Below, one piece after another: positions 17,407-63,646 of a stretch of 64,000 bases of DNA. Within the stretch, counting starts at the first letter, position 1. Each line of letters starts with the position of its first letter. The stretch lies in NCBI GenBank assembly GCA_010093815.1, contig ML996581.1; one strand, 5' to 3'. The notes under the pieces were generated by a model. That model was given only the letters and a program-made list of their open reading frames with translations. It was not told where the DNA came from and did no database searches. The stretch is from Pseudovirgaria hyperparasitica. Taxonomy: Eukaryota. A program made the translations under genes and the position numbers.

Positions 17407-18456
17407 ATGAATGCTTCAATTGATACGTTCATTCTGTACTGTGGATATATATACACTATCCACATTGTGGGGCGGCGCACCCAGCGACGAAGTGAGAGTG
17501 CAGTTTTCATGTTGGAGGTATATATGTACACGGCATTACGGATGGATTGGCATGTATGAATGACTACATTTACGCATTATGGTACAGCAAAGACAGACAG
17601 ACAGCATCTATTTGAGACGGGTCTAGCTAGCCTCATCATCCTTCTTCCATAGAGGTATAAAACTGTTCAGAATTCTCGCTCGTCCCATAATACAAATGGA
17701 CCTTTTGCAGCATCTCATATACATATAGACCAAAAATGGTAATAGTGAATGCAGACAATAATGTTCTCAGCCAGAAAGTGTTAAAAAGATCGGACTACTC
17801 AGTCTGCCAATCACCACCCGGACAAGCCGATGCACATTTGGGGGGGCCCATCACAGACCATCCCAAACAGGAAAGACAAGCTCGTCTCCGATTGGCTGAC
17901 AACAGGTTTACTATCAGTGTAGCCGTGTATCGGGTGCAGGGCCGATTGTACCCGCATAGGGCCGCCCGCATTATCGATTAATTCACTTCTTCATTGGATC
18001 ATCTGAGCTGCGTTGCAGTGTTGCGGTGTTGCGGTGTTGCGGAGTCCTCCCCGCCCTCGCTCTCATACCAACAAAATGGGTCATACTAATACTGTAGCAA
18101 TCGCTAGGCCAAGCCTGGTCTGGTCCGGTCTCGGGCTATTGTCTGTCTGTCTGTCATAGGGCGTGTGTGCGTACGTACTACCGTATGACTCTCTACTCTA
18201 CCACCTGTGGCTATTTTCGTCTTTTACTTCAAACGTCAACTTGAGCCGATACATACCCATTGCCTTGGGTGAACCAGAGAAAAGCATAGAAAGAAAGGAA
18301 GGAAAGAAACATACGCTCGAATTCTCGCTCAACTGACTTTGGCCTCCTGTCCCGTACCAGCTACCAGCTACCAGGTATCAATCAATCAATTATTCATTTA
18401 CTGGCAGCTACCTACCCAGGTCCTCGCTGTACATACATACATACATCAACACCGCC

Positions 18457-20197
18457 ATGGCACCACACGCAGCAACAGAAACAACCGCAATCACCGACAC
18501 CGAGGGCATCCCACTACCAAACCCACTGACCGCCAAGATCCCTATCAATGATATCCTCAACCGCCGCGCAAAGGCACAGCAAGCACAATGGGGCGTCGCA
18601 GCACCCACCAGCATGGACGCATTCAGAATCAACAGACAGCAGCAGCAGGAGCATAAGCCCAAGGCAAAACGCTGGGATCGTAAGTGCACATGATTTATTC
18701 ACTATATGTTTCCCCCCCTCCCCCTTTTTCATTTGACAAACCCCCTCCTGACCTCTCTCTCTCTCTCTCCCCACAGACTACCTATCGCACGAAACAACAT
18801 CGCGCACAGGCTCCGCGCTCAAAGACGCCGCAAAATGGCTCGGCACACCAGGCATCATCTCGCTCGGCGGCGGCCTGCCCTCAAGCGAATACTTCCCCTT
18901 TGCCTCGCTGTCCATCAAAGTGCCACAAGCGCCCTTCTTCAGCGAAGCCGCAACGGCGCAGTCCGGCACCCTCCTAACAGCAGGCAAGCACGATCTCGCC
19001 GAGGGGCTATCCATCTTCGACATTGCGACGGCGTTCAACTACGGGCAGGGCTCGGGGGCCGCACAGCTGCTGCGCTGGATCTCCGAGCACACGGAGCTGG
19101 TGCACGAGCCCGGGTATGCGGATTGGGCGTGTACGATGACGGTGGGGAGCACGGCGGCGCTGGACATGTTGCTGCGCATGTTTACGCGGGCCGGGGATGT
19201 GGTAGTGAGCGAGGAGTACACGTTTGCGTCGGCGGTGGACACGATGCGGCCGCTGGGCGTGCGGGTGGCGGGCGTGGCGGTCGATGCCGAGGGCATGCTG
19301 CCTGCTGCGCTGGACGGGCTGCTCGAGGCGTGGGACCCGGCTGCGCATGCCGGGGCGCGGAAGCCGCGTGTGCTGTACACGGTGCCGAGCGGGCAGAATC
19401 CGACGGGGGCGACGCAGTCTGGCGCGCGGAGGGCGGCGCTGTATGCCGTGTGTCGGAAGCACGATGTCATCGTGTTCGAGGACGAGCCGTACTATTTCCT
19501 GCAGATGGATCCGTATAGCGCTGGGGCTGAGGCGGATACGCCTGCTGCTGCGCCTGCTTCGCTGGCCGAGTTTCTGGACGCGCTGGTGCCGAGCTACCTC
19601 CATCTGGATACGGATGGGCGTGTGGTGCGGCTAGACTCATTTAGCAAGGTGCTTGCGCCGGGCACTCGGATCGGATGGATCACGGGCTCGGAGCAGATTG
19701 TCGGGTTGTTCCGTAAACACGCGGATTTGTGCACGCAGGGGCCGAGCGGGGTCAGCCAGCTGATGGTGTTCAAGCTGTTGGACGAGCACTGGGGCCACGG
19801 CGGCTATCTGGCGTGGCTGATGCATCTGCGCGCCGAGTACACGGCCAGGCGCAATGTGATTCTGCAGGCTGCTGAGCAGCATTTGCCCCGGGAAGTGGTG
19901 CAGTGGACGCCGCCGATGGCAGGCATGTTCTTCTGGATGGGTCTGGATTGGAAACGGCATCCCGACGCCGCGAGCAAGAGCGTGATGGAGATTGAGGAGC
20001 AGGTGTTCATGCGCAGTATCGAGCATGGCGTGTTGGTGATGCGTGGTAGTTGGTTCAGGGCGGATGCAGATAGCGAGATGACGTCGTTGTTTTTCAGGGC
20101 CACGTTCGCGGCTGCGCCGTTTGACAAGATTCAGGAGGCTATACGGAGGTTTGGCGAGGCGATTAGGGTCGAGTTTGGGCTTGTGCAGACGGCGTAG
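18457..20197 (+). CDS. ARO8: Aromatic/aminoadipate aminotransferase (class I PLP-dependent)
   Basis: Intron 18680-18776. Motifs: IISLGGGLPS, YTVPSGQNPTG, EDEPYYFLQM, DSFSKVLAPGTRIGW (PLP lysine), FFRATFAAA. Confidence 0.88.
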
Positions 20198-55825: not shown

Positions 55826-57025
55826 ATGGACAAACATAGTTCCTTCTTTGCTCGTGCAAAAGACCAAGGACTCGTATGGGATGGAATCGCTTTCGCCCCT
55901 ATTGCTGGACTCGGTAACGGTGTCAAAGCAACCCGGCCACTGAAGGTAACTTGCCTATCATCATGCAGTTGCTCATGTATTCTTGTACCGGGGACTTGCT
56001 GAATTGATTTTTATCAGACTGGAGATGTGGTATTAACGGTCCCGGCGTCGACCTTCCGTACACTTTCAACATTATCACCTCGAGTAGTCGAAGCTCTCCC
56101 CGATCATATGTCACTGCACGGCCGTCTAGCTGCCGATCTCTCCCTCGACAATACCCCTGAATTCGCACAATGGAGTGCCTTGTTTCCCAGTATATCCGAC
56201 CTTGAAACAGCCCTTCCCTTCTTCTGGCCCAAAGCCATTCAGGAGCTGCTCCCAGCACCAGCCAAGGCCTCCTTGGAAGCGCAGACAAAGCGCCTCAACA
56301 GAGACAAAACACAAGTCGTTCGTGAGCTGCCGGATATACCACCGTCTACCTTCACGTACTACTGGATGGTAGTCAACTCCCGCTCCTTCTACCTCCCCAC
56401 GCCCGAGATGCAAGCCCTGGACTTCATAGACCGCCTTGTGCTCATGCCAGTTGCCGACCTGTTCAACCACGCCGATGCCGGCTGCCGCACGACCTTTTCG
56501 CCCGATGGCTACCAGTTCGCCGCTGATCGGGATTACGCCGAGGGCGAGGAAGTCAAGATTTGCTATGGAGACCACACGAACGATTTTCTCTTGGTCGAGT
56601 ACGGCTTTGTGCAACGGTTCAGTCGGTGGGATAAGGTGTTTCTAGACGACGTCATCCTACCGAAGCTTGATGTACACCGCAAGACGGTATTGAACCGCCG
56701 GAAGCTGCTTGGTAGTTACGAGATCGGACCAGAGATGCTTGGGTGCCCCCGGACACAAGCGGTGCTGCGACTATTGTTCTGTGGGAGAGGACAATGGGAG
56801 AAATTCGTAAGGGGAAACAGCGATGGTAAGGAGAGCCAGGCCGACGCTAATGCGTTGCTGGAGACTCTTTTGGCCGAGTATGAGGAGCTTGTGAATCAGC
56901 GTATCGAAACGATCGCAGGGGTTCATGATGGCTTAGAGGCTCAAAGACGTGTTCTCATGGATAGATGGAAACAGATCGAATTGGTTGTGTCACTCACTAG
57001 AGAAGCGCTAAGGGCGAAGATATAG
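55826..57025 (+). CDS. SET-domain protein lysine methyltransferase (Rkm2/SETD4-like)
   Basis: GLGNGVKATRPLK, intron 55946-56017, TGDVVLTVP, VNSRSF, PVADLFNH, ICYGDHTNDFLLVEYGF. Confidence 0.88.
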
Positions 57026-57225: not shown

Positions 57226-59870
57226 TCATACCACCCCAGTTTTCCCAACCAGAATCCCAGTTGGCTCCGCGTCCCGACCTCCCAGCTTCACCGTCACGGC
57301 GCTCTGCAACCCTATGGTTTCGAAGTTGATGGAATGTCCGTTGATCATATAAGGCGCATTCTGCTCGCCAGCGTCAGCAGGAGGAGCGCCCGTTGGCGAG
57401 GGGGCTTTCTCGCTTGTCGCAGGCGACATGACCGAGGGCTTGGATTCCATGGCGGGCTCCTTGACTGCTGAGGGAGTCTCTTTGGCAGACTCCACCATGA
57501 TTGAAGAGGGTGTTTCCAGTGCCATGGATGGGCTCTTGACAGAGGACTCGACGACTGCTGAAGGTGTATAGACAGCCGAGTCCGCTGGGGTAGACAGCGT
57601 ATGCATCATCATAGGTATACTGGACTTCATCATGGTCTCGTGAACCATCGGTGGCACAAGAGAAGACCCGACAGACACCACCGGCATAGAAGAATTTACA
57701 AACATATACGGTGCCGACGAAGGCGGACTATGCACAGTGAGCAGCGTCGAAGCTGGTGGCGGGGGCAGCATTTGCGAATAGTGGCTCGCGATGACAGGGG
57801 GTACGGGCGCTGGGTATGCGAATTGGCCGGGTGGACACATGCACTTGCAGTCACAAGAGTTGTGCATTGCTTGGGTTGGGACAGGGACTGGAGCGTATGC
57901 GACGGTGGATTCGGCGTTCACGATTGCGGCGGAGGAAGGAGCGAGTTCGAAGGATAATGGGGGACCGGACTGAAGATTCTGTGATTGTTAGTGTGATTTT
58001 GATTGAGTATTTTCGATTGAGGATGTGCACTTACTGCCGTGGCTTCGGGTGCGCCGGCCTCAGTGACAGTCACGACGTGAGTGATTGACTGGGTTGAGAC
58101 GTAAGGGGAGCCCTCTTGCGTGACAGTCACTTGCAGTTCCTCAACGGAGGTTACCAAGACCTAAAAGTGTCAGAGAGCGGGTTTTCGTAGGTACGTTCAT
58201 GCCTACAGTGTGTTCCATCACAATGGTTTGTTGGACAGTGTGCTCCATCAGTTGTGTGGAGACAAGTTGCTCAGTCTGAACAACTTCAATGGTCTCAGTG
58301 GCCTGGTCTTCCACTGTAACGGTATGTTGCTGAACCTCCGTCTGGATAACTTTGACAATTTCCGTGGCTTGGTCCTCGACCGTGACAGTCTGTTGTTGAA
58401 GATCAGTCACAATTTGCTGTTGAACCTCGGTCTGAACGAGAGTATGTTGCTGCACATCTGTAACTTTGATAGTCTGCTGTTGAACCTCAGTCTGTACTAC
58501 ATGCACTATCTCTGTCGCTTGGTCCTCAACGGTGATTGTATGTTGCTGGACTTCAGTTTGCACGACCTGGATGGTCTCGGTCGCTTGATCTTCGACCGTA
58601 ATGGTATGCTGCTGTAGTTCAGTTTGTACAATCACTTCAGTCGCTTGGTCCTCGACGGTAATGGTTTGCTGCTGGATATCGGTGACCGTCTGCTGTTGAA
58701 TTGAGATCTCAGTCTGAATGACATGGACTGTCTGCTGTTCAACATCCGTAACCTCAACTGTTTGCTGCTGCACTTCGGTCTGTACAACATGGATAGTCTC
58801 CTGCTGAAGCTCTGTTTCGACGGCGGTCACGGTCTGCTGTTGAACCTCGGTGGCCACGATGGTCTCTTGCTGAGTTTTGACATCGGTCTGAATTTGAACT
58901 TCTACCTGCAGCTCAGTTGAGACTTGGAGCTCGGTCTGGACGTGTACTTCTGTCTTGACATCGGTTTCAACGGAGAGCTGAATCTCTGTCTGTTTTTGAA
59001 TTTCAGTCTTGACCTCAGTTTGCTTCTGAACTTCGGTCTGGACCTCGGTCTGGACTTGCAACTCGGTTTGCACCTGTGTCTGCACTTGCAGCTCAGTCTG
59101 AACAATCGTCTTCTCGATGAATTCAGGAACCTTCTCCGTTTGCACGTGGATTTTAGTCTCCAGGATAGTTTCAGGGATGATCTCAGTTTTATGGATAATC
59201 TGAGGGGGCGCGGTTTCCACAACTGTCTGGTGCATGACTTCGGTCTGGACGATGGTTTGCGGGACGACCTGGGTTTCCACCACGTGTTGGACTTGAGTCT
59301 CGACTACGTGCATTACTTCAGTCTGTACGATGGTTTCCGGCACTAGCTGCGTCTCGACGATGTGTTGGATCTGAGTTTCGACGACATGTTGCAGTTCGGT
59401 TTGGACGATGGTCTCTGGGACCATTTGTGTCTCGACCATGTGTTGCACTTGTGTCTCAACCATATGCTGGACTTTTGTCTCAACTACATGTTGGATCTCG
59501 GTCTGAATGACGGTCTCGTGTATCGTCTCTGGAGGAGATTGCTCAGTGACGGTATCATGCACTACCTCGGTGACATAGTAATAGACAGGGGGAGGCGGCG
59601 GTGGTGGAGGGTGGTAATATTCCTGTGATGGTTAGTGGAATCCAATTTGTCTCCAAGATTAGATCAACACACTGCCTATTGTTAGTGAAAGAGCACAATG
59701 TATAGTCAATTACAAGACGCGTACCAGGTGGAGATGCATAGTCATCAGTAGGTGCAGCAAGAGTCTGTCAAGCTGTTAGTATGGTCCCCTACGTGAGAAG
59801 CACTGCGTGTACAGACCAATGGAAGAGCAATGAGAAGCGCAACGGCGCCGCTTGGGAGTATAGACTTCAT
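57226..59870 (-). CDS. Putative secreted or cell-surface Gln/Thr/Val/Glu-repeat protein
   Basis: Signal-peptide-like MKSILPSGAVALLIALPLTLAAP. Introns 59765-59816, complex intron 59623-59725, 58161-58206 and 57970-58034. About 470 aa of VQTEVQQQT / VVETQ repeats, then a CDCKCMCPPG motif and a Ser/Pro/Met-rich tail. Confidence 0.8.
58207..59560 (-). repeat. Intragenic degenerate tandem repeats encoding QHVVETQ, QTEVQ and TVEDQATE units
   Basis: Repeated peptide units are visible in the 58141-59562 ORF translation, e.g. TVEDQATE occurs five times. Confidence 0.9.
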
Positions 59871-60809
59871 TATGGCTAAGAATTTTCGAGACGGCAACGA
59901 ATAGAAGAAACAGTTAAATTAATATATCAGACCAGCTGCAAATGAATGAAAGCGAAGGTCGGCTGGCCGAATATTAGATTGCTTTGATGGTAAAGCTCAA
60001 AGGTCAAAGGAAAGCAAAGAACGAGCGAGAGGCATGTGAGATGCAAACCCAAACACTATAGGAGTGTAGCGGAGTACCAGACGATAAATACAAGACTGTA
60101 GGCGAAGATGTGCAGGCTTCAAGGGCAAAGTAGCCCCAGTCTCAGCCATCTCGGTGAGTGATTACAGAGGATTGTTTGCCGTGTATACGCGGGCCATGGT
60201 CATAATGGCAAAAGGTACAAATTCATGGGAGATCATGAGAGACACATGTCGCATTACTCTGGCACCTATACAATCTTAGCGACGTGCGACATAGACACGG
60301 TCTCAGACAGGTCTGATCTGGGGCCTCGCTGGTGTTGTGAGACGGCCAAGGTGTGAATAGCAAGGCCTTGTTACAGGACGCGTTTCGGCTGATGCCCACC
60401 CGAACGATGGCTTGGAGTCTTTTTGGATTGGCCCCTTCAGCTTTGCCAGGACGAAATAAGATGCATATTCCTAATATTCGCGACTGTTATGATGTCTCTA
60501 ATGTGTTGACGTCGGAAATCCAACATTAGTGGCCATCCACGTGTTGGCATTGGATAGGGAGCGATACAGCCGATTGCTAGCGACCATCGGGGCCGTTTCC
60601 ACGATCGATGTCGTCATGATGGCGCCGTCATCGTTCCTACAACTCATCGGCCTTTGCGGGCGCAGAACTCACCGCAGTGACCTCACGACTTTCGCTGATA
60701 CACTTGTAAAGATACTATTTGAAGCCCGTAGAGCAGCTCCCCTGTCTTCAAACGCGCATTTTCAAAGACCTGACTGTAAGGCACAATAATTCTTAATCTG
60801 GTAATCAAC

Positions 60810-61892
60810 ATGGCGACCCCTGTCCACGTCCTCGATGACTACTATCTGGCCATCACACTTCTCATCACCGTCGCATACCAACTCATTGGCTTCTCCATTG
60901 CATTTAGCCTCAAATTCGACAAGCTCACTGATTTCATGGGCGGGACGAATTTCGTCATCCTCGCAATCATCACCCTTGCCTTTAGCGGCGTCCACCACGC
61001 GCGCAACATAGTATGCTCGCTCTTCATCATGCTCTGGGGCGCGCGCCTCTCCGGCTTTCTACTCTTCCGCATTCTCAAGACGGGCAAAGACGACCGTTTC
61101 GATGATAAGCGCGACAAATTCTTCCCGTTTCTCGGCTTCTGGATCTTCCAAATGTTGTGGGTGTGGACGGTCAGCCTGCCCGTGACGATTTTGAATTCGC
61201 CAAAGGTTACGCAGTACGCACAACCCGACTTTGGCACGGGGAGGGATATTGCGGGTGTGGTGTTTTGGGCCGTGGGCATGCTGTTGGAGAATACGGCGGA
61301 TGTGCAGAAGTATCGGTTCCGGAGTAAGCACCAGGGTGATGGGTCGGTGTGCGATGTTGGCGTGTTCAGCTGGTCGAGACATCCAAATTACTTCGGCGAG
61401 ATGCTGATTCAGTTTGGTATGTCGAATCTCATGGGAACTCCATGTTTGCTTTACTGACCATCCGTAGGTATTTTCATGATCGCCGTATCGCCCGCAGCGA
61501 TCGGCTACGTGCATGGCGGCGCCTACAAAGCCCTCTACGCGTCCATTCTCGGTCCATTTTTCTTGACCCTTCTACTCATGTTTGTATCCGGCCTAACACT
61601 CCAAGAGCGTCCTGGAGCCAAGAAGCGATACGAGAAAGGCAACAACTGGGAGGCCTATGCACGATGGCTTCACCGAACCAGCATTCTGATTCCTTTTCCG
61701 CCGCAATTTTACGCACCAATGCCCGTCTTTCTGAAGCGCACCATTTTCCTCGAATTTCCAATTTATGTTTTTGATCCCGCCAAACATGCCGACTCGAGCA
61801 AGACACAGTCAAACGCGGAAAATGGCAGTGTGCGGCAGAATGATAATGCTGATGGGGCGAGGCCGAGTGATGAGCGAGGTCTCCGAGCTTGA
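60810..61892 (+). CDS. DUF1295 family (steroid 5-alpha-reductase-like) membrane protein
   Basis: DKLTDFMGGTNF, WGARLSGFLLFR..DDRFD, ADVQKYRF, WSRHPNYFGE. Intron 61417-61467 splices in frame. Confidence 0.9.
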
Positions 61893-62630: not shown

Positions 62631-63646
62631 TCAAGAGTCGGCTTCTCCTTCCTGACGTTCTGGCTGGATCGGCATCGCTTCCAATCGAGCTTGCTTCTCA
62701 CGTCGTTTCTTTTCACGTTTTGAGATCGGATTATCTGTACTTCCAGAATCTGCATCAACTTTTCGCTTGTTGTTCTGCTGCTGTTTCGAACCTTTCGAGA
62801 CCAATGGCAAAGTAGTCTGCGGTTTTGGCCTCTCCCCTCCATAAACCACATTCACGGCACCACGATAGCTGTTCCGTTTCAGTTGAGCAAAAGCTACAAG
62901 ATTTCTGGACTCAGTAGATAGGGCTTCTTTGCCTCTTTCTTGACTCAAGCCCCAAACAGTGGTAAGGTTTATGACGTCCCACGGAGCCCGACAGCCTAGC
63001 GCATTAGTCGCGCCACTGCTAATGATGATACCTCTGCCTCTTGTCGCGCGTATAAGCTGGATTACATTGCTAATGACGTTCCTTCGTGCAAGACTGTCCT
63101 TCGCAAGGATGCTTGGTCCGTAACAAATCTCAATGCGCGCTCCTCGCTCTATGGCTTGGGATAGCATTTTGAATTTGAAATAGTACGACAGTCGCTGTGT
63201 CATGTCGATCGACACGATATCGCAGTCAGCGCTTTCACAAGCCTGTTTTAGCGTCTTTTCATCCGTAGGCCTAAGGGCAAGGATATCGTAATTGGCACTC
63301 AGTGTGCTTATGCGGTGATTTTGTGAGGGGTCATGTAGCGTGAGTGTACAACGGCGCAAGATACGCATCGATGGTGGTACAGGAAAGTCGGGCGTCTGGG
63401 GTATGGGACAGGTCTAGTTGAGTCAGAAAATGACTGACGCGCGGTGAAGTAGGATACCAACTAGATCACCAGGAAGCTTGCCAGAAAGCGTGTGATTGAG
63501 AGCAACGACATTATATCCTACTTCACATAATTAGAATTTTGGCCCATGATTTTTCAAAGCATCCCCTCACATTCGTCGAGAAAAGCAATTGTACGTTGTA
63601 GCTCGCGGTCCTGTGCGGCCCAGGGTACATTGAGATCGTAGAACAT
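62631..63646 (-). CDS. RPP1: RNase P/MRP subunit p30
   Basis: MFYDLNVPW, introns 63521-63570 and 63414-63461, LGYNVVALNH, YDILALRP, EICYGP, RGRGIIISSGA..RAPWDVINL..VWGL. Confidence 0.93.

Follow-up and report, generated by a model that had tools for sequence, protein, structure and literature searches.

Spliceosomal twin introns (stwintrons) provide direct evidence for the pairing of splice sites across introns in filamentous ascomycetes. In the DHA1 antiporter gene dhaoS of Trichoderma reesei, an alternatively spliced [D1,2]/[A2,3] stwintron of 154 nucleotides (nt) has been described, in which internal introns of 66 nt and 88 nt overlap by one G; both of its splicing intermediates were cloned and both were also found among expressed sequence tags (ESTs) (Fekete et al. 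2017, PMC5587772). The first [D1,2]/[A2,3] stwintron to be shown, which interrupts the Helminthosporium solani gene for alternative oxidase, had both of its routes verified experimentally (Ag et al. 2015, Fungal Genet Biol, as reported in PMC5587772 and PMC5639578), and this form of stwintron has been proposed as the intermediate for one-nucleotide intron shifts (PMC5587772). In this study, we analysed a window of 64,000 nt on contig ML996581.1 of the Pseudovirgaria hyperparasitica assembly GCA_010093815.1. We propose that 103 bases on the minus strand of this window (59725-59623), which interrupt the gene of a predicted repeat protein of 795 amino acids (aa), are very probably an alternatively spliceable [D1,2]/[A2,3] stwintron.

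The locus resembles the dhaoS stwintron in its GGT start with an exonic/intronic G, in the one-G overlap of its internal U2 introns and in the G that begins the downstream exon; as in dhaoS, two routes would lead to one mRNA, and the structure lies beyond the models of gene predictors. The units measure 53 and 50 nt here as opposed to 66 and 88 nt in T. reesei, and the donor GTACGC misses the strict GTRWGY pattern of the dhaoS study. Whereas dhaoS encodes a conserved transporter, the host gene in P. hyperparasitica encodes an orphan repeat protein and offers no orthologue series in which one-nucleotide shifts could be compared. Unlike dhaoS, for which the intermediates are documented, the P. 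hyperparasitica locus is documented by its mature junction alone. The alternative oxidase stwintron of H. solani, a Dothideomycete of another order than P. hyperparasitica, has the same two-route architecture in a different gene.

Stepwise removal is also found in animals, where recursive splicing at zero-length exons or ratchet points regenerates a donor after the first step. The stepwise removal of one sequence and the regenerated donor are features that this locus would share. In recursive splicing, however, no splice-site element is interrupted by another intron, as the dhaoS study describes it (PMC5587772), whereas here an internal intron lies inside the external donor, G|TGTGT, or inside the acceptor, CA|G, which is the defining feature of a stwintron.

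Sequence-similar 'sister' [D1,2] stwintrons have been reported in Hypoxylaceae and Xylariaceae and verified by RNA reads or EST contigs that join the bounding exons (PMC9024468, PMC8469720, PMC12403724); they have the [D1,2] type in common with the present locus. No second copy of the candidate stwintron was found within the 64-kb window. An origin of its two halves by duplication was considered and rejected, as their likeness is no better than that of signal-preserving shuffles: when the halves were aligned, 1134 of 2000 shuffles in which the donor and the branch-to-acceptor segment were kept fixed scored at least as high as the real pair, and the lower count against whole shuffles (10 of 2000) is explained by the shared splice signals. 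The RNA fold had a minimum free energy of -18.7 kcal/mol where its shuffles averaged -18.36 (z-score -0.12), and neither a near-terminal stem nor an unusual fold was seen. Within the window there was thus no sign of membership in the propagating sister stwintron families of Xylariales, to which the locus seems not to belong.

Architecture of the 103-nt interruption

On the minus strand, the last bases of exon 2 are CCA CCT G, the G being at 59725. It is followed by a unit of 53 nt (59724-59672) that reads GTACGC ... ACTAAC aatagg CAG, and then by a stretch of 49 nt (59671-59623) that reads TGTGTT ... ACTAAC catca CAG. The downstream exon begins with GAA TAT TAC at 59622, and hence with a G. 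Because the G at 59672 is both the last base of the first CAG and the first base of a GTGTGT donor, the 3' unit counted from this shared base measures 50 nt (59672-59623) and the two units overlap by exactly one G. Both units have their own donor and their own branch element, an ACTAAC that lies 10 or 9 nt ahead of the CAG: in the 5' unit, the element at 59686-59681 (branch A at 59682) is separated by N6 from the CAG at 59674-59672, and in the 3' unit, the element at 59636-59631 (branch A at 59632) is separated by N5 from the CAG at 59625-59623. The original prediction had named two branch points, two acceptors and their donors in this region, and all of them are present base for base. When all donors and acceptors of the region were enumerated, no single GT/GC..AG pairing was able to yield the junction CCT|GAA.

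This arrangement agrees with the sequence-level definition of the class to which the interruption had been assigned, and our analysis supports that assignment. The complex sequence opens with two Gs (5'-GGU), as G 59725 is followed by GTACGC, and a complete internal U2 intron with donor, branch element and acceptor lies directly after G 59725. On the sequence, removal of that internal intron gives a GTGTGT donor that is followed by ACTAAC, N5 and CAG up to 59623, as in a [D1,2] stwintron. As in an [A2,3] stwintron, a G stands downstream at 59622, and the internal intron 59672-59623 sits between bases 2 and 3 of the external acceptor. Finally, the two internal introns share one G (59672), as in the alternatively processed form.

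From this layout we infer that the stwintron is removed through two consecutive canonical U2 splicing reactions, with a choice of route. In the [D1,2] route, the 5' constituent would be the internal intron: excision of its 53 nt (59724-59672) would bring G 59725, with which the interrupted external donor begins, next to TGTGT and so create a GTGTGT donor. Together with bases 59671-59623, G 59725 would then make up an external intron of 50 nt, to be excised at the CAG ending at 59623, and G 59622 would be the first base of the downstream exon. The intermediate would read exon 2 plus G joined to TGTGTTGATC. In the [A2,3] route, the 3' constituent would be the internal intron: excision of its 50 nt (59672-59623) would join ..GGCA to G 59622, rebuilding a CAG acceptor of which G 59622 is the last base, and the rebuilt CAG would then serve the donor GTACGC. 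Here the intermediate would read AATAGGCA joined to GAATATTAC, and G 59725 would be exonic; this dual role of G 59725 is suggested by the sequence together with a one-base ambiguity of the transcript joint described below. By a published rule, a G at the start of the downstream exon makes any [D1,2] stwintron an [A2,3] stwintron as well (PMC5639578), and since G 59622 is in that position, both routes would give the same mRNA, with the junction CCT|GAA and the protein sequence ..SPP-EYY...

The reading frame is consistent with removal of the entire sequence. When the 103 nt are removed, the exons 59870-59817, 59764-59726, 59622-58207, 58160-58035 and 57978-57226 join into an open frame of 2388 nt that encodes 795 aa and has one terminal stop. 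If 59724-59623 are removed in one GT..AG step, an extra G remains and the frame stops at 53 aa, and with a GCA micro-exon it stops at 54 aa; the open frame in the first case and the early stops in the other two are as originally predicted. The frame also stops early if only the 5' unit is removed (33 aa), if only the 3' unit is removed (68 aa) or if the sequence is fully retained (87 aa). The long exon is thus in frame under two models only, namely removal of 103 nt or inclusion of a 5-nt GCAGT micro-exon (97 nt removed, Gly-Ser added). Use of the nearer AG at 59773 as the acceptor of intron 1, which would bring a one-step 102-nt intron in frame, was rejected, as the transcript contigs use 59765.

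The nested two-intron layout goes beyond chance. In 200,000 trials, the interior was mononucleotide-shuffled while the first seven and the last four bases stayed fixed. The target was a branch element followed after 4-24 nt by HAG fused to TRNGY and then, at a distance of at least 25 nt, a second branch element followed after 4-24 nt by HAG plus G; the full architecture was recreated in 12 of the trials. When position 4 of the donor is relaxed, the published [D1,2] search pattern with donor GTRWGY (PMC5587772) matches the entire 103 nt, also with the trailing G. Across the 64-kb window, the relaxed pattern has two minus-strand matches, at 59725 and at 18609, against a mean of 0.13 matches expected from 60 first-order Markov simulations. 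The second match (18430-18609, minus strand) reads GGTGGGT...CAGTGGGT..., lies antisense to a plausible open reading frame (ORF) on the plus strand (18337-18693) and has weak branch elements; for these reasons it was set aside as probably a chance match.

Introns nearby measure 52 nt (the RNA-supported intron 1 of the same gene), 50 and 48 nt (the neighbouring gene for RNase P subunit p30, where tblastn alignment of the window with the annotated protein P0021 leaves two gaps of these lengths) and, for the introns predicted further along the gene, 46 and 56 nt. The 53- and 50-nt units match these local lengths, which agrees with the two-intron reading.

Transcript evidence

Transcript support comes from Logan contigs of two sequencing runs, X1 and X2, which derive from one sample and one study, are recorded with library kind '?' and each contain 0.86 of the gene's sampled words. 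The contigs were aligned to 59460-60800, where two contigs per run represent the mature mRNA and the transcript of the neighbouring gene. One long contig per run (4475 and 4420 nt) agrees with the window letter for letter and is free of gaps except at two joints. We took the contigs to be transcript assemblies because they are otherwise perfect and contain two skips with the shape of introns.

The same contig carries both skips. At the first joint, contigs of both runs skip the 52 nt of 59765-59816, with the ends CT..AC on the plus strand, that is, GT..AG on the minus strand. At the second joint, they skip 103 nt (59622-59724, with 59725 joined to 59621), with the ends CC..AC on the plus strand and hence GT..GG on the minus strand. 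This joint can be moved by one G, which gives the alternative ends GG..AG, and there are no letters between its two sides. With ends of either kind, no single canonical intron explains the gap. The bounding exons are joined and the whole sequence including its first G is gone in X1 and X2, as expected of the mature mRNA of a [D1,2] stwintron; the CCT|GAA junction had been predicted to appear as just such a non-canonical 103-nt gap. A GCAGT micro-exon in the mature mRNA, which had been named as the outcome that would speak against a stwintron, was looked for in the X1 and X2 contigs and is not there.

Alternative explanations

Several points count against a stwintron at this locus. The RNA support consists of assembled contigs of the mature mRNA only, neither splicing intermediate is among them, and none of the aligned contigs spans 59640-59684 inside the 103 nt; such contigs show the end product, rare variants being dropped in assembly. 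The two runs come from one sample and study, so that they are not independent replicates, their library type is inferred, and their data may have been used for annotating this genome. The two GG pairs, at 59725/59724 and at 59623/59622, are read from the assembly. The donor GTACGC deviates at position 4 (C for W) from the Aspergillus nidulans consensus GURWGY, and the strict published pattern fails. Moreover, protein, HMMER, atlas and metagenome searches found no orthologous locus for a test of conservation.

An end product with a 103-nt skip and ends of this kind, which is what the contigs show, would also be left by one splicing reaction that removes a non-canonical intron (GT..GG or GG..AG) whose internal signals are coincidental. 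U2 introns with such ends are rare. In addition, the nested canonical layout arose in just 12 of the 200,000 interior shuffles, both halves contain an ACTAAC suitably spaced from a CAG, and 103 nt is about twice the local intron length of 46-56 nt; we therefore regard a single non-canonical intron as unlikely. Removal of an ordinary 102-nt GT..AG intron would give the same mRNA if there were one G fewer, that is, if the G at 59725/59724 or at 59623/59622 were a one-base assembly error or a strain difference, and RNA-like contigs are blind to the intron side of either GG pair. Such an error would have to be confined to one of two specific positions, in contigs whose aligned pieces all agree with the window letter for letter and without gaps. 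It would also turn the second branch element and the fused acceptor and donor inside the sequence into a coincidence, for which the same shuffle count applies, and would still leave an intron of twice the local length, so that an extra G seems highly improbable. Two separate introns around a micro-exon, either GCAGT (in frame, Gly-Ser) or GCA (out of frame), could use the TAG at 59678-59676, a YAG that is the first AG past the first branch element, and the GCAGT model does leave the frame open. This TAG is only 2 nt from ACTAAC, below the minimum distance of 4 nt between branch element and acceptor in the published stwintron search (PMC5587772), which fits the use of the CAG at 59674-59672 instead. 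In X1 and X2 alike, the contigs lack 103 nt rather than 97 or 99 nt and have no letters between the two sides, which contradicts either micro-exon for the major mRNA; as a minor isoform, it is extremely unlikely.

A further possibility accepts the stwintron and adds that one-step mis-splicing from 59724 to 59623, which leaves one G, serves as an on/off control. One-step mis-splicing that retains one G has already been described for some [D1,2] stwintrons (PMC12403724), and here it would cut the protein to 53 aa. Among the X1 and X2 contigs at the locus, from which rare variants would drop out, there is no junction with a retained G, and the fold shows no special RNA structure; regulation of this kind is most improbable. 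The wider scenario, in which a young stwintron stands in the exact intermediate state of the one-nucleotide shift model and the competition of its routes, together with the one-step mis-splice, acts as an on/off switch for a secreted surface or repeat protein, is likewise very unlikely in our view.

Novelty and implications

By our reading of the main texts of the literature, few [D1,2]/[A2,3] stwintrons are documented at the RNA level. We found no paper that treats stwintrons and names P. hyperparasitica, in a search of main texts that compared the two topics separately and covered part of the species literature. The stwintron proposed here would add an RNA-supported [D1,2]/[A2,3] case in a lineage-specific orphan gene of a distant and sparsely sampled lineage of Dothideomycetes. 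The instance is new, and it belongs to a known and fairly rare kind of intron rather than to a new mechanism. Its use lies in the correction of annotation: predictors limited to GT/GC..AG introns would either truncate the 795-aa protein or miss it.

The host gene and its neighbourhood

Exon 1 (59817-59870, minus strand) begins with an ATG at 59870 and has 18 codons with a hydrophobic start that, judged by eye, resembles a signal peptide; the contigs reach 59817 and then jump. The 795-aa repeat protein is thus apparently secreted. Intron 1 (59765-59816, minus strand) is a canonical intron of 52 nt, GTCTGT..CTAAC..GACAG, which is skipped exactly by one contig each in X1 and X2. Exon 2 (59726-59764, minus strand) has 39 nt or 13 codons, ends with CCA CCT and is supported by the frame and by the contig piece 59725-59764 between the two joints.

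After the stwintron and G 59622, the remainder of exon 3 (58207-59621, minus strand) brings this exon to 472 codons, counting 59622. It encodes a proline run and then degenerate repeats rich in V, T, Q and E, which make up about 470 residues of the predicted protein. Exon 3 lies within an open frame of 496 aa (58141-59631) and holds degenerate tandem arrays; contigs cover 59460-59621, and the rest of the exon and its 3' end at 58207 are predicted from the frame and the GTAGGC donor. The plus strand is also open across the repeats of 58141-59631, in stretches of 141-150 aa.

The remaining features on the minus strand are predicted from sequence and frame continuity. They comprise a putative 46-nt intron 3 (58161-58206; GTAGGC..CTGAC..TAG), an exon 4 of 42 codons (58035-58160), a putative 56-nt intron 4 (57979-58034; GTAAGT..CTAAC..CAG) and a last exon of 250 codons plus TGA (57226-57978). 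This last exon would give the protein a tail rich in S, P, A and M, in which a compact cysteine motif, CDCKCMC, is encoded at 57850-57870.

Upstream of the ATG at 59870, the contigs of the gene run on unspliced for at least 665 nt in X2 (to 60535) and at least 742 nt in X1 (to 60612). The minus strand of 59871-60612 contains only short ORFs. The unspliced run points either to a 5' leader of unusual length or to a transcript that overlaps that of the divergent neighbour.

An exhaustive HMMER search with the 496-aa exon against 1.84 billion representative proteins gave 20 matches at E <= 0.001, the best with 31% identity. Inspection of their first 90 residues and amino-acid make-up indicated that all 20 look like matches of composition or repeats, and they were rejected as relatives. 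The C-terminal 253 aa had no match among proteins of 139-443 aa or of 444-2000 aa, and the protein atlas held no usable match for this part. The metagenome scans produced 107 and 404 pattern matches, none of which was upheld by tblastn, and Pfam has no family for any of the gene's three exon ORFs.

P. hyperparasitica, which is classified in the order Acrospermales of the Dothideomycetes, was introduced as a mycoparasite of rust sori (PMC3317363). The best match of the RNase P p30 ORF of the window (62631-63413, minus strand) is a protein that NCBI assigns to this species, with 100% identity, the next best being at 64%. The annotated introns of the p30 gene, of 50 and 48 nt, have the donors GTGAGG and GTTGGT, which shows that donor sequences are loosely conserved in this fungus. 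Because the 496-aa exon is unmatched above 31% while p30 is on record at 100%, the public annotation may omit the repeat gene or place its model on the opposite strand. The surrounding genes comprise a weak SET-domain ORF that scores below the Pfam cut-off (56003-57025, plus strand), a DUF1295 or steroid-reductase-like membrane protein (60780-61457, plus strand) and, at the p30 ORF given above, the RNase P/MRP subunit p30.

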